Positions 9,330 through 60,416 of a stretch of 64,000 nucleotides of DNA are shown here, piece after piece. Location of the stretch: NCBI GenBank assembly GCA_034429475.1, contig DAOUGD010000250.1, positions 21,527 through 85,526 on the forward strand, written 5' to 3'. The translations under genes were made by a program, and so were the position numbers. How positions within the stretch are numbered: the stretch's first letter is position 1; every line of letters begins with the position of its first letter. The stretch is from Anaerolineae bacterium (GTDB lineage: Bacteria; Chloroflexota; Anaerolineae; B4-G1; SLSP01). The notes beneath the pieces are model-generated. The model made no database searches. It had not been told where the DNA came from and was given only the letters and a program-made list of their open reading frames with translations.

Positions 9330-9407
9330 ATAAGAAATGGGAAATAAGTAATGAGTAATCAGAGTGATTATTCATTACTCGTTACTCATTACTCGTTACT
9401 CATTTCC
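9330..9407. repeat. heptamer-unit palindromic repeat array (units ACTCRTT / AATGAGT)
   Basis: taagtaatgagtaatcagagtgattattcattactcgttactcattactcgttactcatt: four tandem ACTCRTT heptamers preceded by their reverse complements. Confidence 0.7.
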
Positions 9408-9441
9408 GGTTTCCGATCATCACCTACTGGGGGCAAGAATT

Positions 9442-10290
9442 ATGGGAAAACGTGGGTTAGGACGTGGGTTGGATGTGTTGATTCCGGCCGGGGAGACGCC
9501 GGCAAATGGCCTGCTAGAGGTTGCCTTAGATGCGATTGTCCCCAATCCACACCAGCCACGGATGCCGTTCCGCGATCAGGATTTGGTCGAGCTGGCCGCT
9601 TCGATTCAGGAGCACGGCATTATCGAGCCGCTGATTGTGGTGCGGACGCCGCAGGGCTACCAACTGATCGCCGGCGAGCGGCGCTGGCGAGCGTCCCGAT
9701 TGGCCGGGTTGAAGGTCGTGCCGGTGGTGGTGAAGGATGTGGCCCCCCAGCAAATGTTGGAACTGGCCCTGGTGGAAAACGTCCAGCGCGCCGATCTGAA
9801 TCCGCTGGAAGAGGCGCTGGCCTATAAGCAGCTTGTGGAAGAATTTGGGGTGACGCAGACAGACGTGGCGCGCCGGGTGGGGAAAAGCCGCGTCGCCGTC
9901 ACCAACACGATGCGGCTGTTGCAGGCCACGGAGGCGGTGCAGCAGGCGGTGCTGGAGGGCAAGATCAGCGAGGGACACGCGCGCGCGCTCCTGGGGCTGA
10001 CGTCGCCGGAAGAGCAAAATCTCACGCTGACGATGGTGGTGGAGCACGGGTTGACCGTCCGCCAGACGGAGGCGTTGGTGCGCAAAGTGCTGGCCGGGGA
10101 AGTCAAGCCGGCGGCCAAACCCGCCGCGCCCCTGCCCGAAGTGCGCGCACTGGAAGAACGCTTCCAGGAATCGCTGGGCACACGGGTCAACCTGAAGGCC
10201 GGGCGCAAGGGGGGGCGCGTCATCATCTATTATTACTCCGACGAAGAATTTCAGTCGCTTTACCAACGGCTGACGGGGGAGACGTTGTAA
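9442..10290 (+). CDS. parB: ParB/Spo0J-family partition protein; no parA is adjacent
   Basis: ParB box II GERRWRA and an HTH. ATG at 9442 chosen within the longer ORF. Confidence 0.9.
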   Translation: MGKRGLGRGLDVLIPAGETPANGLLEVALDAIVPNPHQPRMPFRDQDLVELAASIQEHGIIEPLIVVRTPQGYQLIAGERRWRASRLAGLKVVPVVVKDVAPQQMLELALVENVQRADLNPLEEALAYKQLVEEFGVTQTDVARRVGKSRVAVTNTMRLLQATEAVQQAVLEGKISEGHARALLGLTSPEEQNLTLTMVVEHGLTVRQTEALVRKVLAGEVKPAAKPAAPLPEVRALEERFQESLGTRVNLKAGRKGGRVIIYYYSDEEFQSLYQRLTGETL

Positions 10291-10296
10291 ACAATT

Positions 10297-10358
10297 TCTC
10301 AACGGATTAAACGGATTCTAACGGATTAGCTTCCGTTGAATCCGTTCAATCCGTTGAG
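10297..10358. repeat. family-A hairpin repeat element (AACGGATT units)
   Basis: Inverted repeat tctcaacggattaaacggattctaacggatt / aatccgttgaatccgttcaatccgttgag. Confidence 0.85.
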
Positions 10359-10382
10359 GTTATTTTAGGAAGGAGATGAGCT

Positions 10383-11708
10383 ATGGAGAAACACGAAGAG
10401 ACGAAACTGAATTATGGCCGGACTTTTCTGATTGGGTTTGGCTTTTTTGGCATCAGTGTGATGTGGACGCTCTACAACGCCTACGTGCCCATTTTCTTGC
10501 AAGCTGGGCATCCCGCTTTCAACGCGCCGGGGGAATTGGGATTCGGGTTCAAGCCGGGGCTGACCGGCTTCATTATGACGCTCGACAACATCGCCGCCTT
10601 CTTCCTGCTGCCGTTCATCGGCGTGTGGTCGGATCGGGTGTGGACGCGCTTCGGGCGGCGGATGCCCTTCATTCTCGTGCTCGCGCCCATCTCGATTGCA
10701 GCGTTCATCTTGATTCCGGCGGCGGTGGGGATGATTCCCGTCGCATTGAACGGGCAAACGGCGCAACTGGGCAGCCAACTGGCGTTCTTTATGCTCGCCA
10801 TCGGCCTGTTCCTGCTGGCGATGGCCGGTTTCCGCACGCCCGTCATCGCGTTGATGCCCGACCTCACGCCCAGCCCGCTGCGCTCCCAGGCCAACGGCAT
10901 CATCAACATGATGGGCGGTATCGGGATGGTAGTGGCGACATTGGGCAGCGGCTTTCTCTACAAAATCGGGCGGATCGGGCCGTTCGTCTTCGGCGGCGTG
11001 TTGATGGTCGCGGCGGTGGCGATGCTGTTCTTCTTCGTCAAGGAAAAGCAGACCTTTGAGGCGATGGCCGACGAGAAGAAGGGCTTCAACGTGCTGCGCG
11101 ACCTGTATCTGGCCGTCAAACGCCTGCCGCCGGCCGGAGTGCGCAGCCTCTTCTTCCTGATGGGGGCGATTTTCTGCTGGTTTGTGGGCTACAACGCCGT
11201 CGAGACCTTTATGACCTCCTACGGCGTCAGTGAGTTGGAAATGCCGGCCAACACCGCGCCGTATCTGCTGACGGCGGCCTCACTCACGTTTCTGCTGTTC
11301 TCCGTGCCGGCGGGTTACATCGGCGCCAAGTTTGGGCGGCGGCGCGTCATCATCACCGGGCTGAGCGTGTTCGGCGTGCTGCTGCTGCTCAATTTCTTCC
11401 TGCGCAATGCCACCCTCGTCTGGCCGATCCTGGCAATTGGCGGGATGGGCTGGTCGCTGGTCAACATCAATTCGCTGCCGATGGTGGTGGATTCCGCCGC
11501 CTCCGACGCGGACGTGGGAACGTACACCGGGCTATACTACATCGCCTCGCAGTTTGCGGCGGTGGTCGGCCCCACCCTCAACGGCTACATCGTCGAGTGG
11601 TTCCATAGCGATTACAACCTCATCTTCATCGTGACGCCGTTCTTCTTCTTGATGGCGGTGCTGTGTATGCTCCAGGTGACGCGCGGCGAAGCGAAAACAG
11701 GCAACTGA
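10383..11708 (+). CDS. MFS transporter, glycoside/cation symporter-like
   Basis: About 12 predicted TM helices and MFS_2-type sequence features. RBS GGAAGGAG upstream. Confidence 0.85.
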   Translation: MEKHEETKLNYGRTFLIGFGFFGISVMWTLYNAYVPIFLQAGHPAFNAPGELGFGFKPGLTGFIMTLDNIAAFFLLPFIGVWSDRVWTRFGRRMPFILVLAPISIAAFILIPAAVGMIPVALNGQTAQLGSQLAFFMLAIGLFLLAMAGFRTPVIALMPDLTPSPLRSQANGIINMMGGIGMVVATLGSGFLYKIGRIGPFVFGGVLMVAAVAMLFFFVKEKQTFEAMADEKKGFNVLRDLYLAVKRLPPAGVRSLFFLMGAIFCWFVGYNAVETFMTSYGVSELEMPANTAPYLLTAASLTFLLFSVPAGYIGAKFGRRRVIITGLSVFGVLLLLNFFLRNATLVWPILAIGGMGWSLVNINSLPMVVDSAASDADVGTYTGLYYIASQFAAVVGPTLNGYIVEWFHSDYNLIFIVTPFFFLMAVLCMLQVTRGEAKTGN

Positions 11709-11713
11709 TTTTT

Positions 11714-11763
11714 TCTCAACGGATGGAACGGATTTTCCGTTCAATCCGCTCAATCCGTTGAGT
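11714..11763. repeat. family-A hairpin repeat element
   Basis: tctcaacggatggaacggatt ttccgttcaatccgctcaatccgttgag. Confidence 0.85.
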
Positions 11764-12585: not shown

Positions 12586-12588
12586 TTC

Positions 12589-12657
12589 AGACGTAAAACG
12601 TAAAACGTGAAACGTGAGGCTTTTACAGATGAAGCCATCACGTTTCACGTTTTATGT
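12589..12657. repeat. family-B hairpin repeat element (ACGTRAA heptamers)
   Basis: acgtaaaacgtaaaacgtgaaacgtgagg...tcacgtttcacgttttatgtttc, lying between convergent genes. Confidence 0.85.
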
Positions 12658-12662
12658 TTCAT

Positions 12663-16493: not shown

Positions 16494-16570
16494 GCGAAGA
16501 TTTCACGCAAAGGCGCGAAGGCGCAGAGTTTTCTTGACTATCCGACTATCTGACTATTTTCGGAGGAGAG

Positions 16571-19045
16571 ATGAGCAATCCATTGACACTTTGGTATACC
16601 CATCCCGCCGTCCATTGGACGGAAGCCTTGCCCATCGGCAACGGGCGGCTGGGCGCGATGGTGTTCGGCGGCGCGCCCGTCGAGCGGCTGCAATTGAACG
16701 AGGACACGCTCTGGTCGGGCCATCCGAAGGATTGCGATAACCCGGACGCGCTGCCGTATCTGCCGCAGGTGCGGGAGGCGGTCTTTGCCGGGGATTACGT
16801 CCGCGCCGACGAACTGATAAAACACATGCAGGGGCCGTTCAACCAGAGCTATCTGCCGCTTGGGGACTTGATCCTGGATTTCTCAACGGATTTAACGGAT
16901 GGAACGGATTCTGATCCGTTAAATCCGTTGAATCCGTTGAGCTATCGCCGCTCTCTGGATTTGGACACGGCGTTGGCGGAGACGACGTACACGGTGGATG
17001 GCGTCACCTTCACGCGGCAGGTTTTCGCTTCCGCGCCGGACGACGCCATCGTGATACGGCTGGCGTGCGACAAACCGGGCGCGTTGGCCTTCACCGTCGC
17101 CTTGAACAGCCCGCTGCATTTCCACACGACGCCTTTGCCCTCCGGGGCAGCCGCCCAACCGGGTCTGCTGATGACCGGCAAAGCGCCGCAGCACGTAGAC
17201 CCCAGCTACTTGCCGTCTGACAATCCGGTGATCTATGGGTCAACGGATTCAACGGATGGAACGGAACAGAATCCGTTAAAATCCGTTCAATCCGTTGAGG
17301 GAATGACGTTTGCCGCTTTGCTGTCGGCACGTGTGACGGGCGGCGTGGTGACATCGGAGGGCGACCGGCTGCGTGTCGCCGGTGCGGATGAGGCGGTACT
17401 GCTGTTGTGCATGGCGACGAGCTTCAATGGCTTTGACCACTCCCCCGCTTTTGAAGGCAAAGACCCGGTGACGTGCGTCGCCCACACGATGGCGGCGATT
17501 CTCGACAAGCCTTACGCCATGCTGCTACAAGCGCACCTCGATGATTACCAGCCGCTTTTCCGCCGCGTGGAATTGGACCTGGGTTCGCTCGGCAACGAGG
17601 GCTTGCCCACCGACGAGCGCATCCGGCAGTACCACGCCGCTCCCGACCCGGCGCTGGCGAGCCTGCTCTTCCAGTACGGGCGCTACCTGCTCATCGCCAG
17701 CTCCCGGCCGGGGACGCAGCCCGCCAATTTGCAGGGGATTTGGAACGACATGGTGCGCCCGCCGTGGAGCAGCAATTGGACAGTCAACATCAACACGCAG
17801 ATGAACTACTGGCCCGCCGAGGTCGCGAATCTGGTGGATTGTCACCTGCCGCTGTTCGACCTCATCCGCGCCCTGAGCGTCAACGGCGCGAAGACGGCGC
17901 GGATCAACTACGGCTGCCGGGGCTGGTGCAGCCATCACAACGCCGACGTGTGGGCGCAGTCCGCGCCGGTGGGGAACTACGGCGGCGGGCAGCCGATGTG
18001 GGCCAACTTCCCCTTGAGTGGCGCGTGGTTGTGTACGCACCTGTGGGAGCATTACGCCTTCGGCGGCGACGCGGCCTTCCTGCGCGACGTGGCCTATCCG
18101 CTGATGCAAGGCGCGGCGGAGTTCTGCCTGGACTGGCTGATTGAGGACGGCGCAGGCCATCTGGTCACGTGCCCGGCGATCTCCTGCGAGAACGAATTCG
18201 TCACCGAAGACGGCGTGACGGCGCAGACGAGTATGGCGACGACGCAGGATATGGCGATCATCGGGCAGCACCTCGCCAACTGCCTCGCCGCCGCCGGGGT
18301 GTTGGGGATTGAGGACGAGTTCACCGCGCGCGCACGCGCCGCGCTGCCGCGCCTCTACCCTTTCCAGGTGGGGCGCAAGGGCGACTTGCAGGAGTGGGCC
18401 AGGGATTGGGACAGCGCCGACCCGCACCACCGGCACATCTCGCACCTGATGGGGCTGCACCCCTTCGCGCTGATCACCGAGGGGACGCCCGCGCTGTTTG
18501 AGGCGTGCAAACGCTCGCTCGACCTGCGCGGCGACGAGAGCACGGGCTGGTCTATGGCGTGGAAGGTCAACTGCTGGGCGCGGCTCAAGGACGGCGACCG
18601 CGCGTTCAAAGTGCTGTCGCAGCTCTTCACGCCGGTGGACGCCAGCGAGGGGAACTGGCAGCGGGGCGGCGTCTATCCCAACCTGTTCGACGCGCACCCG
18701 CCCTTCCAGATTGACGGCAACTTCGGCGCGACGGCCGGCATCGCGGAGATGTTGGTGCAGAGTCACACGGGCGTCATCGAGCTACTGCCCGCGCTGCCCT
18801 CGGCCTGGCCGAACGGGAGTGTGAAGGGGTTGCGCGCGCGGGGCGGGTTTGAGGTGGACCTGGCGTGGCGGGATGGGAAGGCGACGGAGGCGACGATACG
18901 CTCGTTGTTGGGGAAGGAGTGCCGGGTAGCGGGGGGTAAGCTCAGCATCATCTGTGATGGGAAACAGGTTTTGATACAGCAGGATGGAAATGGCGGCGCA
19001 TTTTCCACCGAGGCAGGGAAAGTCTATCACGTAGCAGTGGGATAA
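16571..19045 (+). CDS. glycoside hydrolase family 95 (alpha-L-fucosidase-like) containing two in-frame repeat-element insertions
   Basis: GH95 N-terminal motifs [20 protein letters not shown] and LPLGDL. Family-A elements at 16881..16942 and 17240..17299 are translated in frame. Confidence 0.9.
16881..16942. repeat. family-A hairpin element embedded in frame in the GH95 CDS
   Basis: tctcaacggatttaacggatggaacggattctgatccgttaaatccgttgaatccgttgagc, encoding [20 protein letters not shown]. Confidence 0.85.
17240..17299. repeat. family-A hairpin element embedded in frame in the GH95 CDS
   Basis: gtcaacggattcaacggatggaacggaacagaatccgttaaaatccgttcaatccgttgag, encoding [20 protein letters not shown]. 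Confidence 0.85.
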
Positions 19046-20407: not shown

Positions 20408-20511
20408 GAACGAACCACCGCATTATCGGCGACAAAGCGGCTTCGCAGTCACCCGAACACAGCTCGCAATTAAAAAGCTGGAACTCTTTCTAACACAATA
20501 GAGCCTACCCA

Positions 20512-21036
20512 ATGTCCGACATGCTCGTCAAATTATACAACCTCCCACCCCTCCAACCCGCCCTGGATGCGATTGCCCCCATGCACATCCAGATCCGCCC
20601 GGCGCGCGTCGGGGAAGAAACTCAGATTATGCCGTGGATCGCACAGCATTTCAATCCGGGATGGGAGAATGGCGTGGTCTACGCGATCCATCGCAGCCCT
20701 TGCTCGCTGTTTATCGCCATTGAGAAACAGCCGCCTGACCCGGTGCGCGCCGATCCCTACGGCCTGCCGCCGGAAAAGCTGGTGGGGTTTGCGTGCTATG
20801 ATTCGTCCAATCGCGGGATGTTCGGCCCGATGGGGGTCCACCCACGCTATGAAGGTCGGGGCATCGGCACGGCGTTACTGCTGACGGCGCTCCACGCGAT
20901 GTGGAATGAGAACTATGCCTACGCCGTCATCGGCTGGGCCGGCCCGGTGGACTGGTACGCCAGCCGGGTGGGTGCGACGCTCATTCCCGACTCGGAGCCT
21001 GGGCCGTTCCGGGGACGGCTTGAGGGCTGTATATAA
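20512..21036 (+). CDS. GNAT-family N-acetyltransferase
   Basis: Acetyl-CoA-binding motif RGIGTALL. Confidence 0.7.
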   Translation: MSDMLVKLYNLPPLQPALDAIAPMHIQIRPARVGEETQIMPWIAQHFNPGWENGVVYAIHRSPCSLFIAIEKQPPDPVRADPYGLPPEKLVGFACYDSSNRGMFGPMGVHPRYEGRGIGTALLLTALHAMWNENYAYAVIGWAGPVDWYASRVGATLIPDSEPGPFRGRLEGCI

Positions 21037-21046
21037 TTCAAATGAG

Positions 21047-21098
21047 TTTCACGTAGTGCGTAGTCCGTTTACGGAATACGGAATACGCACTACGGACT
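21047..21098. repeat. heptamer tandem repeat array (NNTACGG units)
   Basis: TAGTGCG TAGTCCG TTTACGG AATACGG AATACGC ACTACGG, immediately upstream of the RBS of the next gene. Confidence 0.7.
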
Positions 21099-21106
21099 TT
21101 AAGGAG

Positions 21107-22012
21107 ATGATTATGCCCAAAGATTTCCTAACCTTCCTAGATTTCACTCAAGCCGACCTCGTCGCGCTCCTCGACCTCGCCGGCACGCTGCGCGAGGCGT
21201 GGGAAGCTAAACGGCTTCCGCAGGCTCTCGCGGGCAAGTCCATCGCTCTGATTTGGGACGCGGAGGGGTTCCGCAACCGCGTCTCCTTTGAGTTGGGCAT
21301 CGCGGCGATGGGCGGGATTGCGGTGCAAATCCCCGGCAAGCTCGACGAACGCGAGTTCATCGAGGACGTGGCCCGCTACCTCGACAACTGGTTTGACGGC
21401 ATCGTGTCGCGCGCGCGGCGGCACGACCACATGCTGCGGCTTGCAGCGGCGGCGCAGCCCCCCGTCATCAATGCGCGGACGGACTTCAATCATCCGTGCG
21501 AGATCCTGGGCGATCTGGCGTACATCCGCGCCCGGCGCGGCAGCCTGGACGGGTTGCGCGTGGCGTTTGTGGGCGAAGCCACGAATCTCTGCCATCCCTG
21601 GTTCGAGGCAGCGGCGCGGCTGCCGATCCACGTCACGCAGATTTGCCCGACGGGGTACGAGGTGAGCGCCGAGTTCATCGCGCAGGTGCAGCGGGACGCC
21701 GTCGGCACGGTGGCCGTGAGCCACGAGTTGGACGCGAGCCTCAAAGACGCCGACGTCGTCTACACCGACTGCTGGCCGCGTCGCAGCAGCCCGGAAGACG
21801 CCGAGCGCGTCGCCCGGCAATTTCTGCCCTACCAGATCACTGCCGAAAAGCTGCGCCTTGCCGCGCCGGACGTTCTCTTCCTGCCCTGCCCGCCTGTCAC
21901 GCGCGGCGAGGAAGTCTCGGAGGATGCAATGGCGACCCTGGGCCATCACGTCTATGAAGCGAAAGCCTATTTGCTGCACGCGCAAAACGCGGTGTTGAGC
22001 ATGCTCCTGTAG
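21107..22012 (+). CDS. divergent aspartate/ornithine carbamoyltransferase-family protein
   Basis: Transcarbamylase-fold similarity, but the key motifs are altered: STRTR becomes GFRNR, HPxQ becomes HPCE, and HCLP becomes FLPC. Confidence 0.7.
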   Translation: MIMPKDFLTFLDFTQADLVALLDLAGTLREAWEAKRLPQALAGKSIALIWDAEGFRNRVSFELGIAAMGGIAVQIPGKLDEREFIEDVARYLDNWFDGIVSRARRHDHMLRLAAAAQPPVINARTDFNHPCEILGDLAYIRARRGSLDGLRVAFVGEATNLCHPWFEAAARLPIHVTQICPTGYEVSAEFIAQVQRDAVGTVAVSHELDASLKDADVVYTDCWPRRSSPEDAERVARQFLPYQITAEKLRLAAPDVLFLPCPPVTRGEEVSEDAMATLGHHVYEAKAYLLHAQNAVLSMLL

Positions 22013-22045: not shown

Positions 22046-22213
22046 ATGCAAACTCAAGAATTGTGTCTTTTGATGCCGGAAGACTTGGGATTCGGGATGT
22101 GGGCGCAGGATATGGCGAATGAGGATAGTGTGGACTACGTCAATCGTATCCGAGCGACTGCCAACAGGCCTCTGCACGAAATGGTTGAAGAGTTGTCGCA
22201 ATGGCAACTGTAA
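22046..22213 (+). CDS. small ORF (55 aa), possibly a VapB-like antitoxin remnant
   Basis: RBS GGGAGGG upstream. Overlaps the PIN fragment start by 13 nt, as toxin-antitoxin pairs typically do. No family recognised. Confidence 0.25.
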   Translation: MQTQELCLLMPEDLGFGMWAQDMANEDSVDYVNRIRATANRPLHEMVEELSQWQL

Positions 22214-22287
22214 GCTACCTGGTAGACACCGATACTCTGATAGACTGGTTAAAGGGACTGCCGTGGGCCAAACGCTTTATAGCGTAA
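22201..22287 (+). pseudogene. truncated PIN-domain (VapC-like) toxin: N-terminal 28 codons only
   Basis: MATVSYLVDTDTLIDWLKG matches the VapC N-terminus (YLLDTNxLI), then a stop. hicB begins 30 nt downstream. Confidence 0.45.
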
Positions 22288-22317
22288 AAATAGCGGATCA
22301 TGAGAAAGGAGATTGAA

Positions 22318-22569
22318 ATGCCTGTGACAAAGGAAGGGGCCATGATCAGACAGTTTAAAATTATTGTAGAGAAACATCCTGATGGATACGTGGCTTATCC
22401 CCTTGGATTGAATGGCGTGGTTGTCGGTGAGGGGGACACTTACGAAGAAGCGTTAATGGACGTTAAATCGGCGATTGCGTTTCACATTGAAACGTTTGGA
22501 CCAGAAGACCTTGAAACTGCCACGCCCGTTTTGGAGGCCTTTGTCGCCGAGGCTGGAGTAGCGTTCTAA
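22318..22569 (+). CDS. hicB: HicB-family antitoxin
   Basis: UPF0150-like sequence. RBS AAAGGAG upstream of the ATG at 22318. About 46% GC. Confidence 0.65.
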   Translation: MPVTKEGAMIRQFKIIVEKHPDGYVAYPLGLNGVVVGEGDTYEEALMDVKSAIAFHIETFGPEDLETATPVLEAFVAEAGVAF

Positions 22570-22808
22570 TGCCCAAATTCCCTGTAGACGCGCCCATCAA
22601 AAGAGTGATCCAGACCCTTGAACAACTAGGGTTTCATGTGGTACGAGAAGGCAATCACATTGCTATGGTGCGCGAAAATGTTGATGGCACACGGACGCCC
22701 TTGACAATGCCTAATCATACGCGAATTAAAGGTTCAACCTTGCGAACAATTCTCACTCAGTCCGGTATATCCAGAGATGAGTTCTTGGATGCTTATGAAG
22801 GACACTGA
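22569..22808 (+). CDS. hicA: HicA-family toxin
   Basis: KGSTLRTILTQSGI matches the HicA KGSxLxxILKQAGI motif. Start overlaps the hicB stop. Confidence 0.75.
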   Translation: MPKFPVDAPIKRVIQTLEQLGFHVVREGNHIAMVRENVDGTRTPLTMPNHTRIKGSTLRTILTQSGISRDEFLDAYEGH

Positions 22809-23880: not shown

Positions 23881-24516
23881 ATGCAAAGTTCCGACCGCAT
23901 CCAACTTTTCGACGCCTGGGCGCAGCGCTATGATGTCTCCCTGGCTTCGACCGACGGCGATTTTCCCTTCGACGGTTATGAGCGAATTCTGGACGAAGTG
24001 GTGACGCTGGCCGATGTCAGGCCGGGGATGCGGATTCTTGACCTCGGCATCGGTACGGGCAATCTGGCGCAGCGCTTTGTGCAGCAGGGCTGCGAGGTAT
24101 GGGGTGTGGACTTTTCGGCGGAAATGCTGGCGAAGACGCGGGTGAAACTGCCGCAAGTTCGACTTGTGCAGGTGGATTTGCTGACCGATTGGCCCGCCAA
24201 CATCCGGCCGCCCTTTGATCGGATCGTCTCGGCCTACGTCCTGCACGAATTCACCCTTGAGGGCAAAGTCGCCGTGCTGCGCCGTGCTGCCCGCTACCTT
24301 GCGCCGGGCGGCGTCATCCTAATCGCCGACATCGCCTTTCCAAGCGTTACCATTCGTGAGGCAACGGCGCGGCACGTCTATGGCGACTCGTGGGATGAGG
24401 ACGAATGGTACTGGGCCGCCGCCGAAGCCATCGCCGCGTGTAAAGCCGCCGGCCTGCACGCCACGTACCGGCAAATGTCGCGCTGCGGCGGCATCTTCAG
24501 GATTGCACCACAATAG
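23881..24516 (+). CDS. class I SAM-dependent methyltransferase
   Basis: Motif I ILDLGIGTG. Confidence 0.8.
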   Translation: MQSSDRIQLFDAWAQRYDVSLASTDGDFPFDGYERILDEVVTLADVRPGMRILDLGIGTGNLAQRFVQQGCEVWGVDFSAEMLAKTRVKLPQVRLVQVDLLTDWPANIRPPFDRIVSAYVLHEFTLEGKVAVLRRAARYLAPGGVILIADIAFPSVTIREATARHVYGDSWDEDEWYWAAAEAIAACKAAGLHATYRQMSRCGGIFRIAPQ

Positions 24517-24528
24517 AAAGAAAAATCG

Positions 24529-24600
24529 GGACGCAGGTTTTCGCAGATTCACGCAGATAATTTTTAGAAAATCAGCGTTCATCCGCGTTTATCTGCGTCC
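24529..24600. repeat. family-C hairpin repeat element (ATCTGCGT decamer units)
   Basis: cgcagattcacgcagataat...cgtttatctgcgtcc. Confidence 0.8.
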
Positions 24601-24667
24601 TATATCTCTGGATGGCCCATTCAATAACCAATCTTTCGGGTTCAGCGTGAAGAAAGGAAATCAGGGT

Positions 24668-25339
24668 ATGGACTCAAATCGCAAGCACTGGAACGAGCAA
24701 CAAAAGGAATTTCACGCCGTCCTGCTGAGCTTCAAGCAGCACGACCGGGCGATGGCATTGTTTGTACAGCAGCACGCCGCGCTGCACTCGGCAAAGGTGA
24801 CGCCGGGCATCCCCTGGTCGTTTGAGGACGAAGTGTTGGATGACATGACGGAGGCGCAGATTCGCCGCATTCCGCAGGGCTGCGACTACTCCGTGGCGTG
24901 GCATATCTGGCATCTGGCCCGCATCGAGGACATCACGATGAACCTGCTGCTGGCCGGACGTCCGCAGCGCTTCGTGCGCGAGGGCTGGCAGGCGCGGCTC
25001 AACGCGCCGGTGGTGGATACGGGCAACGCGATGACGAAAGACGAAGTCGCGGCCCTCAGCGAGGCGCTGGACATTGCCGCGCTGCGCGAGTATCGTATGG
25101 CCGTTGGCCGTGAAACACGCGAAAACGTCACGGGGCTGGCCCCGGAGGCGTTCAAGCAAAAGGTAGACCCGGCCCGGCTGCGCCAGGTGATGGAGGAAGG
25201 CGCCGTGGTTGAAGCTGCACGCGGCATCGTGGACTACTGGAGCCGCCGCACCCTCGCCGAACTGCTGCTGATGCCCCCCACGCGCCACAACCTCGTCCAC
25301 CTGAACGAGGCGCTGCGCCTCAAGCAGAAACGCCGATGA
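24668..25339 (+). CDS. DinB/YfiT-like (DinB_2) family protein
   Basis: Helical-bundle DinB_2 similarity. ATG at 24668 inside the longer ORF. Confidence 0.6.
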   Translation: MDSNRKHWNEQQKEFHAVLLSFKQHDRAMALFVQQHAALHSAKVTPGIPWSFEDEVLDDMTEAQIRRIPQGCDYSVAWHIWHLARIEDITMNLLLAGRPQRFVREGWQARLNAPVVDTGNAMTKDEVAALSEALDIAALREYRMAVGRETRENVTGLAPEAFKQKVDPARLRQVMEEGAVVEAARGIVDYWSRRTLAELLLMPPTRHNLVHLNEALRLKQKRR

Positions 25340-26996: not shown

Positions 26997-27063
26997 ATCG
27001 GTAATTCGCAATTCGTAATTCGCAATTCGTAATTCGCAATTCGTAATTCGTAATTCGCCATTC
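26997..27063. repeat. direct heptamer tandem array (TAATTCG/CAATTCG, 9 copies)
   Basis: gtaattcgcaattcgtaattcgcaattcgtaattcgcaattcgtaattcgtaattcgcc. Confidence 0.85.
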
Positions 27064-28335: not shown

Positions 28336-29291
28336 TGCGCTGGGGAATGTGCTGTTTCCTCCTATGCGCACTGGGACTGTCCGCGTGCATCCCTGCCCTG
28401 CCCACACTGCCGCCGACGCCGGCCATACCATCCACGCCCACACCGCCTTCCCGCGACTTCGCCATTGTCGGCTACCTGCCCGACTACCGCACGCTCGATC
28501 CGGCGTGGGGGCGCTACGTCACCGACATCGTCTACTTTTCCGCCGGGCTGCGCGCCGATGGGGAACTGGACACGACTCGGCTAGACGCGCAAACCCTCGC
28601 CGCGTTGCGCGAGATGCGCTCCATCTATGGCACGCGCGTCTTTATCGCCATCGGCGGATGGGAGCGGTCGGGAGGCTTCGCCGCCGTCGCCGTTGACCCG
28701 GCGCTGCGCGCGTCCGTGGCGCGGACGCTCACCGCGTACTGCCTCGAAAACGGGCTGGACGGCGTGGACTTCGATTGGGAGTTCCCCGAAGGCGCCGCCG
28801 AGATCGCGGGCTACGTGGCGCTGCTCGCCGAAGTCCACACGGCGTTTGCGCCGCACGATCTGCGGGTCAGCGTGGCGCTGGCGGCGTGGCAAGACCTGGG
28901 GAGCGGGTTGTACGCGGCGGCGGATCGCATCCACATCATGGCCTACGATCACGATGGGCGCCATTCGACGTTTGAGCAGGCCGCCGAGGACATCCAGGTT
29001 TTCCTGAAGCGGGGCGCGCCGTCGGAGAAACTCCTGCTTGGCGTGCCGTTTTACGGACGCAACGTCCAAAACCCCGCCATCGCTCTGACCTACGCGGAGA
29101 TCGTGAGCACCCATCACCCCGCGCCGGACGTAGATGAGGCAGGCGGCGTCTACTTCAACGGCATTGCCACCATTCAAAAGAAGACCCGCTACGCGCAAGA
29201 GCAAGGGCTGTGCGGCGTGATGATCTGGGAACTGGGGCAGGATACGACGGATGACACGTCGTTGCTCCGGGCAATCTGGCAAAATCAATAA
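28332..29291 (+). CDS. glycoside hydrolase family 18 (chitinase-like) lipoprotein
   Basis: GH18 catalytic motif DGVDFDWEFP. Lipobox LSAC after the signal peptide. Confidence 0.8.
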   Translation: MMRWGMCCFLLCALGLSACIPALPTLPPTPAIPSTPTPPSRDFAIVGYLPDYRTLDPAWGRYVTDIVYFSAGLRADGELDTTRLDAQTLAALREMRSIYGTRVFIAIGGWERSGGFAAVAVDPALRASVARTLTAYCLENGLDGVDFDWEFPEGAAEIAGYVALLAEVHTAFAPHDLRVSVALAAWQDLGSGLYAAADRIHIMAYDHDGRHSTFEQAAEDIQVFLKRGAPSEKLLLGVPFYGRNVQNPAIALTYAEIVSTHHPAPDVDEAGGVYFNGIATIQKKTRYAQEQGLCGVMIWELGQDTTDDTSLLRAIWQNQ

Positions 29292-29344
29292 GGAATTCAT
29301 CATTAACCGGCGGTTCACCCGTGGTTAGATGAAAATGTCACCGC

Positions 29345-29401
29345 AGGGATTAGGGATTGGGGATTAGGGATTAGGCTGTCCCAATCCCCAATCCCCAATC
29401 T
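29345..29401. repeat. family-D hairpin element of GGGGATT/AGGGATT heptamers (STRR1-like CCCCAAT)
   Basis: gggattagggattggggattagggattagg ctgtc ccaatccccaatccccaatc. Confidence 0.85.
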
Positions 29402-29457
29402 CTATTTTCAAGGAGTGATACCGAACCTATGGTGCAGCCCCGATAATGAAAATTTTT

Positions 29458-29518
29458 ACATGGATGGACAGGATGGACAGGATTTTTGGAATCTATCCTG
29501 TGCATCCTGTATATCCAT
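29458..29518. repeat. imperfect hairpin of GGATGGACA units
   Basis: catggatggacaggatggacaggat ... atcctgtgcatcctgtatatccatg. Confidence 0.6.
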
Positions 29519-47207: not shown

Positions 47208-47399
47208 TGAGTCCTCCTTCTCCGGGGCAAGCCCTGAATGAACACAAATTCATTATACCATGCGGATAAAAAAGAAACAAGGCAAAGCGAGAAAGCGAAC
47301 AAGCGAATAAGCGAGTGGACGAGATGTGCTGGGTGGTGGTGCGCTGCAATCCCCCATTTGGCCTCCGTGCAAAATTGCCTTATACTCAGGCCTATCCAT

Positions 47400-50361: not shown

Positions 50362-50703
50362 TTACGCCACCGCAAACCCCGTCAACGGGCGGACATCGGG
50401 CGGCTGGAAGGCCAGCACAATATCCTCTTTGGGGATGCCGGCTGCCAGCAGGTCCGGTGTGATGCCGTGTTCCAGCCAATCCTCTTCAATCCACAACTTG
50501 TCATCCCGCAACCGAACATACACCGTTGTGCCGCGAATTCGCCGCTGTTGGTCCCAGCCGGTCGAAACCAACATATAGTGGTCATGCTCCGTGTCGGCGA
50601 CCACTTCGGTTTCCTTGCCCGGCCTAGCAGAACGGTTAATCACGTCGGCGTATTGCGTAAGAATTTGCCGGATGATGTGCCGATAATGAGTTAATTTGTC
50701 CAT
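50362..50703 (-). CDS. xisI: XisI-family protein
   Basis: Characteristic XisI sequence, e.g. YRHIIRQILTQYA and HYMLVSTGWD. Confidence 0.8.
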   Translation of the reverse strand: MDKLTHYRHIIRQILTQYADVINRSARPGKETEVVADTEHDHYMLVSTGWDQQRRIRGTTVYVRLRDDKLWIEEDWLEHGITPDLLAAGIPKEDIVLAFQPPDVRPLTGFAVA

Positions 50704-51107
50704 ACAACCACCTCCTCTTGCGCCAGATTAACCACAATTAAGGCCATCTTATTCCGTTGCACCAGCAATTGAATAGCTTTGCGGGCGAAGACGTTTTCGT
50801 AGACGGGTAGACTAACCGCCAGATATAAATGGCGATCTGGTTCAACGGCTTCCAACAGGCTTTGATAGAGCACATATTGCCCCAAGGCTTCTTCCATTGC
50901 GTGGATGACCGAAGGCGCTATAAAACTTTTGATTTCCACCGCAATTTTCTGCCCCGCTCGTTCTGCTGCGATCACCCGTTCCGCGCCCAGGTCAACAAAA
51001 ACCGTCGTATCTTCATACTCCAACGTGTAAGGATCGTGGGTGATCGTCCACCCGTCTTTGATCAAAGCATTTCTGACAGCCGTATGAATGATGTCTTTTG
51101 CGGGCAT
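50691..51107 (-). CDS. xisH: XisH-family protein (PD-(D/E)xK nuclease-like)
   Basis: XisH signature MPAKDIIHTAVRNALIKDGWTIT. Overlaps xisI. Confidence 0.8.
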   Translation of the reverse strand: MPAKDIIHTAVRNALIKDGWTITHDPYTLEYEDTTVFVDLGAERVIAAERAGQKIAVEIKSFIAPSVIHAMEEALGQYVLYQSLLEAVEPDRHLYLAVSLPVYENVFARKAIQLLVQRNKMALIVVNLAQEEVVVWTN

Positions 51108-51190: not shown

Positions 51191-51217
51191 CAGCGCGATT
51201 TGGAAATCGCGGCTACA
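51191..51217. repeat. short hairpin cgcgatttggaaatcgcggctaca (family I), 3' of uvrA
   Basis: A near-identical copy lies at 55297..55322. Confidence 0.6.
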
Positions 51218-54125
51218 ACACCCCCCGCAAATACCCCCCCGTATACGAGTCTTGCACTTCCGCCACCGCCTCCGGCGTCCCCTGCGCCACCAGCCGCCCG
51301 CCGGCGTCGCCGCCGTCCGGCCCCAGGTCTATGATCCAGTCCGCAGTCTTGATCACGTCCAGGTGATGCTCGATCACCAGGACGGTGTGGCCCGCGTCCA
51401 CCAGGCGGTTCAGGCTGAGCAGCAGCTTCTCGATGTCGGCGGCGTGCAGGCCCGTCGTCGGCTCGTCGAGGATGTAGAGGTTGTGCGCGCCGCGCTTCAG
51501 CTTCCCCAGCTCGTGCGCCAGCTTGACGCGCTGCGCTTCCCCGCCGGAGAGCTTCGTCGCCGGGTGGCCCAGCTTGAGGTAGCCCAGGCCCAGGTCGCGC
51601 AGCGTGCGCAGTTTGTGGACGACGCTGCGCGGGACGTCTCGCGTCTCCTCGAAGAAAGCCACCGCTTCCTCAATGGACAGGTCCAGCACGTCGGCGATGC
51701 TCTTGCCGCGGTACGTCACTTCCAACGTCTCGGCGTTGTAGCGCGCGCCCTTGCACACCGGGCATAGCGTCTCCACGTCCGCCATAAACTGCAAGTGCGT
51801 GTTCAGGTAGCCCTCACCCGCGCACTCCTCGCAGTGGCCTTCCTTCACGTTGAAGCTGAACCGCGAGGCGGTGTAGCCTCGCGCCCGCGCCTCCTCCGTC
51901 TCCGCGAACAGGCGCCGGATCGCGTCGTACACACCGATGTACGTCGCCGGGTTCGAGCGCGGCGTGCGCCCGATGGGCGACTGGTCAATGTCTATGATGT
52001 CGGTCACATACTCCACCCCTTCCACGGCGCGATGCTTGCCCGGCAAGGTACGGTGGTCATGCAGGGTGGCGTAGAGCTTCTTGTAGAGGATCTCGTGGAT
52101 GAGGCTGCTCTTGCCGCTGCCGCTCACGCCCGTCACGCAGATGAAGAGGCCCAACGGGAACGTCACGTCGAGGTCGCGCAGGTTGTTCTCCCGCGCGCCG
52201 CGGATCACCAGATTGTGCCCGTTGGGATGGCGGCGCATCTCCGGCAGGGGGATGCGCGCGGCCCCATCGAGGTATTGCCCCGTGAGCGAGGCCGGATCGT
52301 GCAGCACCATCTCCACCGGGCCGCACGTCACCACCTCGCCGCCGTGTTCGCCCGGCCCCGGCCCCATCTCGATGAGCGTGTCGGCGGCGCGGATGATCGC
52401 CTCGTCGTGCTCCACCACCACCACACTGTTGCCCAGGTCGCGCAGGCGGTGCAGCGTCTCCACCATCTTGCGCGTGTCGTAGGGATGCAGGCCGATGGTC
52501 GGCTCGTCGAGCACGTACAACATCCCCATCAGGTCGGAGCCAATCTGCGTGGAGAGGCGGATGCGCTGCGACTCGCCGCCGGAGAGCGTGTTCGACGGGC
52601 GGTTGAGCGTCAGGTAGTCCACGCCGATGTCGAGCAGCAGGCGCACGCGGCGGACGATCTCGCGGACGATCTGCGTGCCGGCCTCGCGCTTCTTCTCCGG
52701 GATGGGGACGGCTTCCAGGAAGGCGATGAGGTCGGCAAAGGCCATGTCGCCCAGCTCGTGGATGTCCTTCCCGGCGATGGTGACGAGGAAGCGCTGCGGT
52801 TTGAGTCGCTTGCCGCCGCAGTCGGGGCAGGTGTGCTCCACCATCACCTTCTTGAGCCACTCGTCCATCCAGGTGTTGAAGCGGCCCTCTTTGCGGTAGC
52901 GGCGGTAGTTGCGCTCGATAAAATTGATGATGCCCCCAAACGACATCTCGCGCCCTTCCCACCGCTCGCCGGTCTTCGCGCCGGGCGGGATCACCACCGG
53001 GAACTTCGCGCCCTTTGTCCCGTAAAAGAGGAGGTCCACAATCGCCGGCGGAAGGTCTTTGAACGGCGTGTCGAGGCTGAAGCCATAGGCCTGCGCCAGG
53101 CTATAGGCCATCCGCCCCGACCACGAATTCTTGTCGGGATTGAGCGCCTCCTTCGCCAACGCACCGCCCGCGATACTGCGGTGCGGGTCGAGGATGAGCA
53201 GCTCCGGGTGCACACTGCGATACGTCCCCAGCCCCAGGCACGTCACGCACGAGCTAGAGCCAGACGGCAAGTTGAAGCTGAAATACTGGGCTTCCATCTC
53301 GCCCTTGACCATCTGATGCTCCGGGCACGCCAGTTCTACGGGACGCAGATTTTCGCGGATGAACGCAGATTTTTCTGTATTTATCTGCGTTACTCTGCGT
53401 TCATCTGCGTCCAAAATATGGATGCTGATGAAGCCCTCCCCCAGCAGCAGACCGTGTTCGAGGGAGGCGAGGATCTGCTTGTCTTTGCCCGGATGGATGG
53501 CGAAGCGGTCTACGATGACATCAATCTGGTACGTCGTGTCCTCGTCCAGGTCAACGGGTTCGCTGAAGTCTACGAAGCGCCCGTCAATGTAGGCGCGGCG
53601 GTAGCCCCGCGTGCGCACCTCGTCGAAGAGATAGGCGTAGTCCTCGCCGTAGATCTTGAAGACGGGCGCGCGCACCTCCACTTCCGTCCCGGCGGGCAGC
53701 GTCAGCAGGTGGGCGAGCATCTGCTCCGGGCTGCGCGTGGGGACTTCGGCGCCGCAGTACGGGCAGTGCGCCACGCCGATGGTCGCGTAGAGCATCCGCA
53801 GGTAGTCGTAGATGTCGGTCATCGTGCCCACCGTCGAGCGCGGGTTGCGTACGCCGGTCTTCTGCTCGATGGAGATGACGGGCGACAGCCCATAGACAAA
53901 GTCCACGTTGGGCTTCTTGAGCTGCGCGATGTACTTCTTCGCAAACGTGGACATAGACTCCAGGAAGCGCCGCTGCCCCTCGGCGTAGACCGTGTCAAAC
54001 GCCAACGACGACTTCCCCGACCCGCTCACCCCGGTGATCACTACCAGTTGGTTCCGCGGAATCTCTACCGTGATGTTCTTCAAGTTGTGTTCTTTTGCGC
54101 CTTGTACGGTTATCGTGTCTCGCAT
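51213..54125 (-). CDS. uvrA: excinuclease ABC subunit A (canonical class I) with an embedded repeat element
   Basis: Two ABC modules, zinc fingers and the UvrB-binding domain. A family-C element at 53342..53412 is translated in frame as [22 protein letters not shown]. Confidence 0.95.
53342..53412. repeat. family-C hairpin element embedded in frame in uvrA
   Basis: gacgcagattttcgcggatgaacgcagattttt...ttatctgcgttactctgcgttcatctgcgtcc. Confidence 0.85.
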
Positions 54126-54141: not shown

Positions 54142-54209
54142 GTTTTGGGTTATGGGTTGTGGGTTTAGGGTGCATACCACCCACAACCCATAACCCTGAA
54201 CCCACAACC
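54142..54209. repeat. family-F hairpin (GTTNTGG heptamers) between the NTase gene and uvrA
   Basis: gttttgggttatgggttgtgggtttaggg tgcatacc acccacaacccataaccctgaacccacaacc. Confidence 0.8.
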
Positions 54210-55296: not shown

Positions 55297-55322
55297 ACGC
55301 GATTTAGAAATCGCGGCTACAC
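55297..55322. repeat. family-I hairpin cgcgatttagaaatcgcggctaca
   Basis: Second copy of the 51191 element. Confidence 0.6.
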
Positions 55323-55837: not shown

Positions 55838-55862
55838 TCACCGCCGGCGCAATCTGTTGATT

Positions 55863-55915
55863 AAAACGTAAAACGTGAAACGTAAGGCTGTTACGTTTCA
55901 CGTTTTACGTTTTAT
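55863..55915. repeat. family-B hairpin repeat element
   Basis: aaaacgtaaaacgtgaaacgtaagg ctg ttacgtttcacgttttacgtttt. Confidence 0.85.
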
Positions 55916-56733: not shown

Positions 56734-56810
56734 GGTGATTAGTGATCAGGTATCAGGGATTAGGATAAGCTTCCCTGAGCTGATCCTTGATCCCTTATCA
56801 CTCATCATTG
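56734..56810. repeat. family-G hairpin of TGATNAG-type heptamers
   Basis: gtgattagtgatcaggtatcagggattaggataagc / ttccctgagctgatccttgatcccttatcactcatcattg. Confidence 0.7.
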
Positions 56811-58728: not shown

Positions 58729-58743
58729 CCGCTCTGTCAATGT

Positions 58744-58804
58744 CTCAACGGATTGAACGGATTGAACGGAAAAATGTCCGTTAAATTCCGTTGAATCCGT
58801 TGAG
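58744..58804. repeat. family-A hairpin repeat element
   Basis: tctcaacggattgaacggattgaacgg aaaaatgt ccgttaaattccgttgaatccgttgag. Confidence 0.85.
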
Positions 58805-58866
58805 AAAAACAATCTTCTTCATTGTTGGGGTTGTGCCCCCGGTTCGGTAACACGCTGAGGAATTCT

Positions 58867-59667
58867 ATGACTAATCCGGTGACATTTTCGCGGCCCGTGA
58901 AAAAACAAACCCTGGCCGAACAGATGGCGGAGACCATCCGCGAGGCGATTCTATCCGGCGAGCTGGCGGCAGGCGCGGAGTTGCCCACCGAGCCGCAGCT
59001 CTGCGAGCAGTTCGGCGTCAGCCGCACGGTGGTGCGCGACGCCACCCGCATCTTGATGGCGCAGGGCCTGGTCAGCGTGGAACATGGGCGCGGTATGACC
59101 GTGACGCAATCGCAGACCGAGGCATTTGGCGACGCACTGTTGATGGCGCTGCGCCGGGCAGGGGCGACCGTCTGGGATGTGGAGCAGTTCGAGCAGTTGC
59201 TCTTCCCGGAGGTCGTTGCGCTGGCAGCGACCGCAGCCACGGATGCCGAAATCGCCGAGGTGCGCGCGCTGACCGAAGCGTATCTGGCGCTCTTCAGCGC
59301 GCAGCAGACGCAAGAACCGTCAGCCGTCGCGCAAGAGGCGTTGCGCCAAGTCTCCCAACGGCCCCTCCGGGCGATCTTTGACGCCACCCACAACCGGGTG
59401 CTGCAACAACTGGCGTCCCCATTGCTGCATCTGCGCAACCTCCGGCACTGGGAGGACACTGCGCATACCGGCGACGTCATCGCGCTAGAAAGTGGGTATA
59501 TGCACGCTCTGGTAGAGGCGTTGGAGAGCCGCGACGCCGACGCCGCCCGCCGCGCCGTCGCGCGCTTGATGCAGCTGCCAGAGTATGCCATCGCCGCCAT
59601 GCGCGCCACCCCGGTCGGCGAGATTCCCCTCATCTCTGAACCAATGCCCGCCCAAGCAACATCATAA
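58867..59667 (+). CDS. GntR-family transcriptional regulator (FadR/FCD-type C-terminal domain)
   Basis: wHTH ELPTEPQLCEQFGVSRTVVRDATRIL with an all-helical C-terminal domain. Confidence 0.85.
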   Translation: MTNPVTFSRPVKKQTLAEQMAETIREAILSGELAAGAELPTEPQLCEQFGVSRTVVRDATRILMAQGLVSVEHGRGMTVTQSQTEAFGDALLMALRRAGATVWDVEQFEQLLFPEVVALAATAATDAEIAEVRALTEAYLALFSAQQTQEPSAVAQEALRQVSQRPLRAIFDATHNRVLQQLASPLLHLRNLRHWEDTAHTGDVIALESGYMHALVEALESRDADAARRAVARLMQLPEYAIAAMRATPVGEIPLISEPMPAQATS

Positions 59668-59679
59668 AAAACACAAAGC

Positions 59680-59715
59680 CGGGTTTCTCACATAGAAACC
59701 CGGTTTTTGTTGTTG
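59680..59715. terminator. bidirectional terminator between convergent genes
   Basis: aaagccgggtttct cacataga aacccggttttt. Confidence 0.7.
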
Positions 59716-59730
59716 CTATCAGGGTCACTG

Positions 59731-60321
59731 TCAATCTACTTCGATGTACAGCCGTCCCATCTGCCGCCACTGGCGCAGAAACGACGCCTCATCCTGCCAG
59801 GATAGGCCGTTCTGCTGCCAGTTTTTGGGCGGATCGGGCAGGTGGACTTGCGCGGGGTCCACAAAGAGCAGCCCCTCCCCCGGCGTGTACCCAAAGACGA
59901 TTTTGAAGTGGCCCCATCCGGCGTAACGCCCTCGCTGCCAGCGCAGCGGCTCGCCGATCAGGACAAGCGTGATCCAGTCGTCCTGCACATTGCGCTGTAG
60001 CCTTTCCAACGTTCCACCCAAGGCCCAGCGCGCCGCGATCCCGTGATCCCGCAAATACTGCACGATACCCCACGGAAACGTTGCCCAGTGTGGGATGCGG
60101 TGCGCCACAAGCTGCGGTCGGGGGCGCGCGCGCAATCTCCAGTGATTCATCTCCTGCGCCACCGTCGCCCCCACAAAGCGCGCTTCATTGAGCCGGGCAT
60201 TGGCGGCCATCGCCAGACACGTCGGCCCGCAATCGTTGGTCTCGCCCTGGTGTTGGTGATAACGATAGACCGGTGTGGTAAGGTGAAACTGCAACGAGGT
60301 CAGATTGGGCACTTCAACCAT
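59731..60321 (-). CDS. stand-alone papain-like cysteine peptidase, C39-like
   Basis: NDCGPTCLAMAA matches the C39 catalytic Cys motif. A downstream GHFKIVFGY candidate His is present. Confidence 0.55.
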   Translation of the reverse strand: MVEVPNLTSLQFHLTTPVYRYHQHQGETNDCGPTCLAMAANARLNEARFVGATVAQEMNHWRLRARPRPQLVAHRIPHWATFPWGIVQYLRDHGIAARWALGGTLERLQRNVQDDWITLVLIGEPLRWQRGRYAGWGHFKIVFGYTPGEGLLFVDPAQVHLPDPPKNWQQNGLSWQDEASFLRQWRQMGRLYIEVD

Positions 60322-60344
60322 AAGAGTTGTTCCGCAATAACGAA

Positions 60345-60416
60345 AGAAAGATTAGGACGCAGATAAACGCCGATGAACGCTGATTAAAAAAGATTATCTG
60401 CGTGAATCCGCGAAAA
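60345..60416. repeat. family-C hairpin repeat element
   Basis: ggacgcagataaacgccgatgaacgctgatt aaaaaag attatctgcgtgaatccgcgaaaatctgcgtcc. Confidence 0.85.

Follow-up and report, generated by a model that had tools for sequence, protein, structure and literature searches.

The stretch of DNA analysed here (64,000 nucleotides of an Anaerolineae genome, contig DAOUGD010000250.1; hereafter the window) carries genes for ParB, an MFS protein, an AP-endonuclease, a GH95 glycosidase, an ornithine/aspartate carbamoyltransferase, UvrA and, at 6124-7653, RNase Y. It has a G+C content of ~60 %, and its closest named homologues are metagenome-assembled genomes (MAGs) of Anaerolineae. At the junctions between these genes lie hairpins in which each arm consists of 2-5 copies of a 7-10-nt unit. 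Such an element, or an array with units in direct orientation only, is present at 17 of the ~53 gene junctions in the window, and the families of tandem-unit hairpins found there are real and abundant. Of the host genome, our analyses covered the window together with ~7 kb on each side (14.5 kb of flanks, ~79 kb in all).

An earlier note on the window had proposed that families of such hairpins exist and had given coordinates for them. At each of these coordinates, Tandem Repeats Finder reported paired arrays with a period of 7, 9 or 10, the reverse-complement array starting 2-30 nt after the first, and each place holds an element of the kind described. A scan of the window for inverted repeats returned 16 hairpins with at least 18 paired bases, 13 of which are tandem-unit hairpins by inspection; ten pass a strict test in which both arms must have the same 6-11-nt periodicity. 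In 20 dinucleotide-preserving shuffles of the window, hairpins of that size did not arise, and the copies of a family are 81-96 % identical along their entire length, so that the existence of families is borne out on both counts. With weaker copies included, the window holds 19 tandem-unit hairpins (five of family A, five of family C, two of family B, and singletons D, E, F, G, J, K and X) and four direct-only arrays (H, two at 16506-16557 and one at 47284-47314). The hairpins are about 50-80 bases long and occur at a density of ~1 per 3 kb, and three further elements lie in the 14.5 kb that flank the window on the same contig. Two of the hairpins, J (29458-29520) and K (30450-30523), had been absent from the earlier note. 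Because identical elements occur in independent assemblies of related genomes (loci L118 and L119; loci L120 and L121), an assembly artefact is excluded. The elements are listed below by position in the window, with the strand given for direct-only arrays and simple hairpins.

9327-9406: element X, ~5 period-7 units per arm (GAAATRR / ACTCRTT), upstream of parB; kept in L118.
10298-10358: family A copy 1, unit AACGGATT, period 9, 3+3 units, between the stop of parB and the MFS start; ends 24 nt before the ATG.
11715-11762: family A copy 2, 2+3 units, at the junction of the MFS and AP-endonuclease genes; its end is 19 nt before the ATG.
12589-12661: family B copy 1 (B1), unit ACGTRAA, period 7, between convergent genes; 94 % identical to B2.
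16506-16557, plus strand: two adjacent direct-only arrays, CGCRAAGG x2.5 and GACTATC x3, 13 nt before the GH95 start.
16882-16941: family A copy 3 (GH95 ins1), in frame within the GH95 gene.
17240-17296: family A copy 4 (GH95 ins2), in frame within the GH95 gene; empty sites in L122, L123 and L124.
21049-21098: family E, CGTAGTN / TACGGAN, period 7; ends 14 nt before the ATG of the ornithine/aspartate carbamoyltransferase gene.
24529-24601: family C copy 1 (C1), unit ACGCNGAT, period 10, 3+3 units; orthologue in L118/L119.
27001-27063, plus strand: family H, direct-only array, AATTCGY x8.7; ends 16 nt before the ATG; variant pattern in L118.
29345-29404: family D, GGGGATT / CCCCAAT, period 7.
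29458-29520: family J, GGATGGACA, period 9; 19 nt separate its end from the ATG that follows.
30386-30587: family C copy 2 (C2), arms at 30386-30416 and 30556-30587, with a 139-nt loop that holds K.
30450-30523: family K, unit CGCRGAG, period 10, 3+3 units, inside the C2 loop.
33010-33065: family C copy 3, 2+3 units.
47284-47314, plus strand: direct-only array, AAGCGARN x3.9.
51195-51216, minus strand: family I copy 1, a GTAG-tagged simple hairpin of the repetitive extragenic palindromic (REP) type.
53341-53412: family C copy 4, in frame within uvrA, residues ~239-262.
54142-54208: family F, GGGTTNT, period 7, 4+4 units, upstream of uvrA and 16 nt from its start.
55299-55320, minus strand: family I copy 2, REP type.
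55862-55914: family B copy 2 (B2), 24/24 positions paired.
56736-56807: family G, TGATYAG, period 7.
58743-58805: family A copy 5, between the stop of an MFS gene and the start of a GntR gene.
60355-60426: family C copy 5 (C5), the same element as C1 in opposite orientation.

The arms of these elements are 25-31 nt long whatever the size of the unit, which corresponds to about four 7-nt or three 9-10-nt units; units repeat every 7 nt in B, D, E, F, G, H and X, and every 8-10 nt in A, C, J and K. Conservation is highest in the outermost unit, which also lengthens the palindrome (CTCAACGGAT...ATCCGTTGAG in family A and GGGACGCAGAT...ATCTGCGTCCC in family C). Spacers of 1-3 nt between unit cores are mostly non-complementary and unpaired, and the loops are A/T-rich, such that a folded strand would be modelled as 7-11-bp helices stacked with symmetric internal loops between them. 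Families C and K have a common architecture, and the outer stem ACCGCAG...CTGCGGT, which K has in common with arrays in Hymenobacter, may resemble helix 45 at the 3' end of 16S rRNA, perhaps by coincidence.

The families proposed earlier are real, but some of them are related: similar cores are found in the units of C and K (ACGCAGAT, CGCAGAG), in the unit of A and in the CGCAAAG arrays. Family H had been described as direct repeats only, and a direct-only array is indeed what lies at 27001-27063. Family I does not belong with the others: it has no tandem units and is a simple GTAG-tagged stem-loop (GTAG + CCGCGATTTnnAAATCGCG on the minus strand; hairpin GTAGCCGCGATTTnnAAATCGCG). A search of the tandem-unit hairpins of the window for a GTAG or CGTC tag found none, and GTAG followed by a stem-loop occurs only in family I. 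Hairpins of the REP type are usually mobilised by REP-associated tyrosine transposases (RAYTs), and no RAYT gene lies in the window or its 7-kb flanks.

Dispersed copies resemble one another in ways that go beyond the unit itself. C1 and C5 are one asymmetric element in opposite orientations, one arm is exactly alike in C2 and C5, and all three of these copies have an identical order of unit variants and spacers, which is found in both orientations; likewise, B1 and B2 have their first loop bases in common. The members of each family are thus shown to descend from common ancestors. We also count as evidence of insertion the nesting of K within the C2 loop. The stop codon of the open reading frame (ORF) upstream of C2 (30413-30415) falls within the left arm of that element, and a K-type element lies at a different junction in L118.

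The earlier note had placed the elements between genes, which holds for most copies but not for three that lie in frame within coding sequences, two of family A in the GH95 gene and one of family C in uvrA. For each of the three in-frame insertions there are orthologues that lack it. The 9-nt units of the GH95 inserts are read as STD.../...NPL tripeptide repeats, and both segments are missing from distant GH95 homologues. The uvrA product has ~16-24 residues more than solved UvrA chains, which show a 16-residue gap at the insert. For GH95 ins2, the empty site (...TACGG|CGAGG...) is seen in three relatives (L122, L123 and L124), and the window, L118 and L120 carry a 54-nt in-frame insert there. 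No target-site duplication was found at this filled/empty pair or in the flanks of the 19 copies. Whole elements have been copied to new sites in either orientation without duplication of the target, which is shown as a pattern.

Gene models near these elements deserve separate mention. Two UvrA paralogues are encoded 8 kb apart on the minus strand (51213-54125 and 61765-64000), and only the first has the family C insert; the second runs past the end of the window and is 961 amino acids long in L125. The longest-ORF calls at 24356-25339, 20906-22012, 29486-30415 and 16571-19045 read through elements, and false N-terminal extensions of DinB, the carbamoyltransferase and the DUF4037 protein result.

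Syntenic loci from relatives permit copies to be compared at orthologous junctions, with protein identity of 89 % for L118/L119 and ~76-78 % for L120-L124. The junction between the MFS and AP-endonuclease genes holds a family A element of 2+3 units in the window and of 3+3 units in L118/L119, and the GACTATC array comprises three units in the window and five in L118. One unit is absent from P0006 and P0009, in one arm only. These differences in unit number (2 versus 3 and 3 versus 5) uphold the suggestion of slippage in the earlier note. At other junctions one family takes the place of another: family A between parB and the MFS gene in the window corresponds to a GGGGATY-type element in L118, family E between the GNAT and carbamoyltransferase genes corresponds to an A-like element in L124, and D and J together, between the GH18 and DUF4037 genes, correspond to K in a relative. 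The two arms of a single element can also evolve apart, as seen at L125 4746-4809, where they have been homogenised separately (CGCCAAG versus CGCAAAG). Local remodelling of copies by gain and loss of units through replication slippage, with the arms partly homogenised singly, is thereby shown.

The syntenic strings are also broken by small toxin-antitoxin-like modules (61204-61732 on the minus strand and 22046-22808 on the plus strand of the window; 2041-2564 of L126), which include BrnT/BrnA, ParE and small ORFs between the carbamoyltransferase and isochorismatase genes. Of these, the 22-kb insert is missing from L124.

In a rival account, whole elements would not be transposed at all. Each would be made on site, when a simple hairpin or a DNA break is extended on both sides by repeated slippage, template switching or unit addition. 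At the GH95 ins1 site, where the window has three units, L124 and L123 have one-unit hairpins (GCGCCGGAT-TGTG-ATCCGGCGC and GCGCGGAAT-GG-AATCCGCGC, respectively), and elsewhere the hairpins at this site have three units. Further signs of local construction are the separate homogenisation of arms in L125, the 14-nt higher-order repeats of element X, which differ between its arms, and the lack of target duplication. Against local construction stand the dispersed copies that agree in ordered unit variants, spacers and loop starts, the single 54-nt difference that separates a filled from an empty site, and the presence of one family at many unrelated sites in many genomes, and we regard it as distinctly improbable. 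One-unit hairpins with the core CGGAT-TGTG-ATCCG are also seen at L120 ~20410-20450, L123 ~2300, and L124 ~2340 and 10950-11001, and these could be relatives of family A with just one unit, or its precursors.

The reading that we favour, with a probability of roughly 0.6, is that these are dispersed repeats akin to the repetitive sequences of cyanobacteria known as STRR (short tandemly repeated repetitive): inverted pairs of short tandem arrays that are copied whole and then remodelled by slippage. The copy-paste spread suggested in the earlier note agrees with the likeness of dispersed copies (C1/C2/C5 and B1/B2) in unit order, spacers and loop starts, and with the whole 54-nt insertion at the filled/empty site. 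Under this scheme, an entire element would be copied, in one orientation or the other, into a new site where the target is not duplicated, after which units would be gained or lost by replication slippage and each arm would be partly homogenised on its own. Insertions presumably survive where they do little harm, such as in short spacers between a stop codon and a ribosome-binding site, in the loops of earlier elements, and in surface loops of proteins if the insert is divisible by three in length and contains no stop codon. Elements that are transcribed may fold as stable hairpins upstream of ribosome-binding sites and might, in that form, affect mRNA decay, processing or read-through.

This last point leads to the possibility that the hairpins themselves are what selection maintains. 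They could be cis-acting RNA structures in polycistronic mRNAs, blocking RNase J or 3' exonucleases, offering processing sites to RNase III or RNase Y, or acting as weak terminators, with the repetitive build as a mere by-product. Eight elements or arrays end 13-24 nt upstream of a start codon, directly 5' of a U-rich tract and Shine-Dalgarno sequence. The predicted RNA stabilities range from -24 to -44 kcal/mol, and RNase Y is encoded in the genome. In L118, the orthologous junctions retain X, B1, C1 and H, and cyanobacterial STRR hairpins have been proposed to play a like part (PMC2670836). Nearness to the ribosome-binding site may, however, be no more than a consequence of the very short spacers. 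As for intrinsic terminators, which have a G+C-rich stem and a U tract at the end of a transcription unit, several elements are followed by TATTTT and B1 lies between convergent genes. Most elements lie between co-directional genes right before a ribosome-binding site.

If the paired structure were selected, base pairs should covary. Among 30 distinct 3+3 hairpins of family C, the variable centre of ACGC[N]GAT shows Watson-Crick pairing at chance frequency (10/30 for the middle unit against a shuffled mean of 11.1, and 14/30 against 12.1 for the inner unit), and the spacers of the same hairpins are not complementary beyond chance. When the stem mismatches of all families are taken together, G-U pairs on the sense strand (19) and on the antisense strand (A-C; 16) reveal no wobble bias. 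The five family C copies, judged by eye, occur in either orientation relative to transcription. In searches against Rfam, the window yields no match at the gathering score, and the region 29200-29600 gives only sub-threshold, miRNA-precursor-like matches. The elements do not qualify as a structured cis-regulatory RNA family, with neither compensatory changes nor a fixed strand found in family C. The presence of the same conserved unit in both orientations fully explains the complementarity of the arms. Nothing indicates selection on base pairs, as shown for covariation and orientation in family C and for wobble pairs in the families together, and near-equal arm lengths and the common length of 25-31 nt are the only hints of a constraint on shape. 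Selection as RNA hairpins is further opposed by copies within coding sequences, by the interchange of different families at one junction, and by the 42 % of listed metagenome family C arms that lack an inverse arm. We consider it a doubtful explanation, and continue to favour dispersed repeats that are copied whole.

Searches beyond the host show that the units are widespread, with the taxonomic spread to be read as a sample and not a census. An exact-pattern scan for two adjacent A units (16 bases), made in one genome per species, gave at least 116 loci, many of which are chance matches or coding sequence. Among the matches listed, there are clear arrays and hairpins from Anaerolineae, Caldilineaceae, Thermoflexus, Hymenobacter, Flavobacterium, Prevotellaceae, Chitinophagales, Ignavibacteria/Melioribacter, Calditrichota, Binatia and Microcoleus. 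Elsewhere, these genomes bear further unit families (L044, for example, has five hairpins of five families in 8 kb). A 22-base family C pattern, for which a rough estimate that assumes ~2 Tb of sequence puts the chance expectation at ~0.2, was found at no fewer than 120 metagenome loci, with a G+C content of 36-68 %. Among 135 family C arms at the metagenome loci listed, 39 % are matched by a canonical inverse arm and 42 % lack an inverse arm. Everywhere, spacers and loops are rich in A/T, and they track the G+C content of the contig only weakly. Viral contigs hardly carry the elements (three family C matches, and no family A hairpins among ~130 matches), and a link to phages was rejected.

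Several neighbourhoods outside the window are of interest in their own right. In Hymenobacter (L015, L016, L041, L064, L095 and L104), four-unit arrays of mixed C- and A-type units (GACCGCAGATT-AACGGATT-AACGGATT-GCGCGGAT), with a G+C-rich hairpin after them, start precisely at the TAG stop codon and reappear inverted 140-510 nt away on the far side of small genes; at two loci the arrays bracket a conserved 115-amino-acid gene without a Pfam family. In Flavobacterium (L049, L078 and L079), matches to Flavo-1 RNA (RF01705) adjoin arrays of AATCCGTT/AATCTGTG units, and the Flavo-1 Rfam motif might belong to this repeat system or be connected with it. Moreover, a ~55-nt motif, GGAATTCATCATTAACCGGCGGTTCACCnGnGGTnnGATGAAAATGTCACCGCAG, is present in conserved form at three unrelated junctions in three genomes (window 29291-29344, L118 ~7800-7860 and L027 ~3780-3835), where it leads each time into a tandem-unit element of a different family. 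This motif could encode a mini-ORF (IINRRFT...) and has no Rfam match.

The broad distribution bears on another possibility, namely that the units are DNA or RNA binding sites of a conserved protein (transposase-like, nucleoid-associated or regulatory) and the arrays are platforms for cooperative binding, comparable to transposon ends with several subterminal sites. Conservation is concentrated at the unit core (RCNGAT at 9-10-nt spacing), with the centre and spacers free to vary, and the unit at the outer end differs from the others and is the most conserved of all (GGGACGCAGAT, CTCAACGGAT). Units recur unchanged across phyla from 36 to 68 % GC, the A/T-rich spacers track genome GC only weakly, and direct-only arrays are as common as hairpins among the family C arms listed. 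Against binding sites stand the ten or more unrelated units in one genome, the many 7-nt periods that do not fit the helical repeat of DNA, the tolerance of elements within genes, and the lack of a linked candidate gene. Arms also flank at most ~0.5 kb in the loci seen. Binding arrays are, in our assessment, an unlikely account of these elements.

Genes that might mobilise or maintain the repeats were sought in several ways. The earlier note had recommended a search for an associated RAYT, retron or diversity-generating retroelement gene, and none lies in the window or within 7 kb on either side. We also found no tRNA or tmRNA and no parS site, although family B resembles half a parS. An XisH/XisI gene pair is situated at 50362-51107 on the minus strand, directly downstream of uvrA. 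A tblastn search with XisH and XisI against all loci retrieved one further pair, in L045 (Caldilineaceae), within 4 kb of a AACGGATT array; this one case is too few to establish an association.

Several observations weigh against whole-element copying followed by slippage, and they are collected here. Pfam scans of essentially all ORFs in the window and the 7 kb on each side detected no transposase, RAYT, reverse transcriptase or integrase. Likewise, when 3990 ORFs from the 120 family C loci listed were clustered, no recurrent linked gene emerged, the largest cluster being FHA-domain proteins at 10 loci. The coexistence of at least ten unit sequences in one genome is hard to square with a single sequence-specific transposase. 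Several elements are conserved at orthologous sites, and ins2 is 93 % identical between the window and L120 although the flanks are 71-74 % identical, whereas comparison with the closer L118 gives 70 % for ins2 and 88-89 % for the flanks. High identity over diverged flanks hints at constraint or gene conversion. Near-equal arm lengths suggest that a force is at work that keeps the arms symmetric. Finally, simple selfish spread within a lineage does not predict 8-nt units that are alike across several phyla and 36-68 % GC. Binding arrays and construction on site explain two things that our preferred reading does not: cross-phylum conservation of units and arm-specific homogenisation.

Because units recur across phyla while base pairs show no selection, the question shifts from RNA structure to what recognises or produces the unit. 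One speculative answer, which we judge quite unlikely, is that unit cores (RCNGAT at 9-10-nt spacing, as in AACGGATT and ACGCAGAT, and perhaps the heptamers) are recognition or template sequences of a trans-acting machinery common to Chloroflexota, Bacteroidota, Ignavibacteriota and Cyanobacteria, which would write, expand and keep symmetric the arrays at gene junctions and is possibly linked to nucleases of the XisH/XisI type. If true, this would constitute a new kind of system, extending across phyla, for genome punctuation or mobile DNA.

Cyanobacterial repeats of the STRR type have been known since 1990, and the units of STRR1-3 are CCCCAGT, TTGGTCA and CAACAGT. To our knowledge, no mechanism or function has been assigned to them. 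None of the units in the window equals these three, although family D (CCCCAAT) is one base off STRR1. Hairpin-forming arrays of 7-bp repeats between genes, for instance between hupS and hupL, are 'not unusual in filamentous cyanobacteria', their function being unknown, and effects on mRNA stability or translational coupling have been proposed (PMC2670836). The title of Vioque 1997, as cited in PMC2858038, places STRR sequences within an RNase P RNA gene. The resemblance to STRR asserted in the earlier note therefore stands: both systems have short, mostly 7-nt tandem units, many dispersed intergenic copies, inverted arrays that form hairpins, and locations within a functional gene. The differences are that the host here is an Anaerolineae MAG that encodes RNase Y, not a filamentous or heterocystous cyanobacterium, that units span 7-10 nt, and that elements are shown to insert in frame into protein genes and to be replaced by another family at one junction.

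Other repeat systems are similar in part. Direct repeats of TAACTGA and other heptamers lie upstream of start codons in Beggiatoaceae, Cyanobacteria and Bacteroidetes, and their phylogenetic distribution is similar to that of XisH/XisI (MacGregor 2015, PMC4679880); a regulatory role for heptamer repeats in Nostoc is speculative (bioRxiv 10.1101/2022.06.06.494920). As here, those arrays (2-6 units) stand a few nucleotides before start codons and are patchy across phyla, and the window has an XisH/XisI pair of its own, but they are direct repeats with one inverted case and one dominant unit, whereas ours are mostly inverted pairs of many families. GTAG REPs have been defined and their type reported in Chloroflexi, with occasional intragenic copies, notably in repair genes (PMC3733652), and in REPINs the hairpin-forming doublet is the unit that is copied (PMC3116915). 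REPs, REPINs and bacterial interspersed mosaic elements are likewise families of short extragenic palindromes at gene junctions, some of them intragenic, and family I fits the GTAG type; the tandem-unit hairpins, however, have no GTAG/CGTC tag, their arms are direct-unit arrays and not the single imperfect stem-loop of 20-40 nt that marks a REP, and no RAYT is nearby. Miniature inverted-repeat transposable elements have similar inverted arms but differ in the target-site duplication that is lacking here.

In-frame fusions of repeats into genes are known (PMC3184786, PMC3733652), including the Rickettsia palindromic elements (Ogata 2000, reviewed in PMC3184786), which, like the inserts described here, are palindromic, keep the frame and add a peptide segment. 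Those elements are 105-146 nt long without tandem units, whereas our inserts are 54-72 nt long with 9-nt units that yield tripeptide repeats. In the same phylum, Chloroflexus aurantiacus has heptamer satellites, (GATAGRA)n, throughout its genome (PMC6749651); these are direct arrays of one unit, and neither hairpins nor multiple families are reported. In the literature covered, which is incomplete and does not extend to Elhai 2008, probably the closest study, we found neither tandem-unit hairpins of several families described for Anaerolineae, nor their insertion in frame, nor the recurrence of AACGGATT/ACGCAGAT units across phyla.

For the biology of these bacteria, the findings mean that elements of the STRR kind are dense at this locus in Chloroflexota, where clean comparative evidence is available for their insertion, for slippage and for the replacement of one family by another. 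The elements lengthen proteins such as UvrA and GH95 by 18-24 residues. They also shift predicted start and stop codons, and the annotation of genomes from such hosts is affected.

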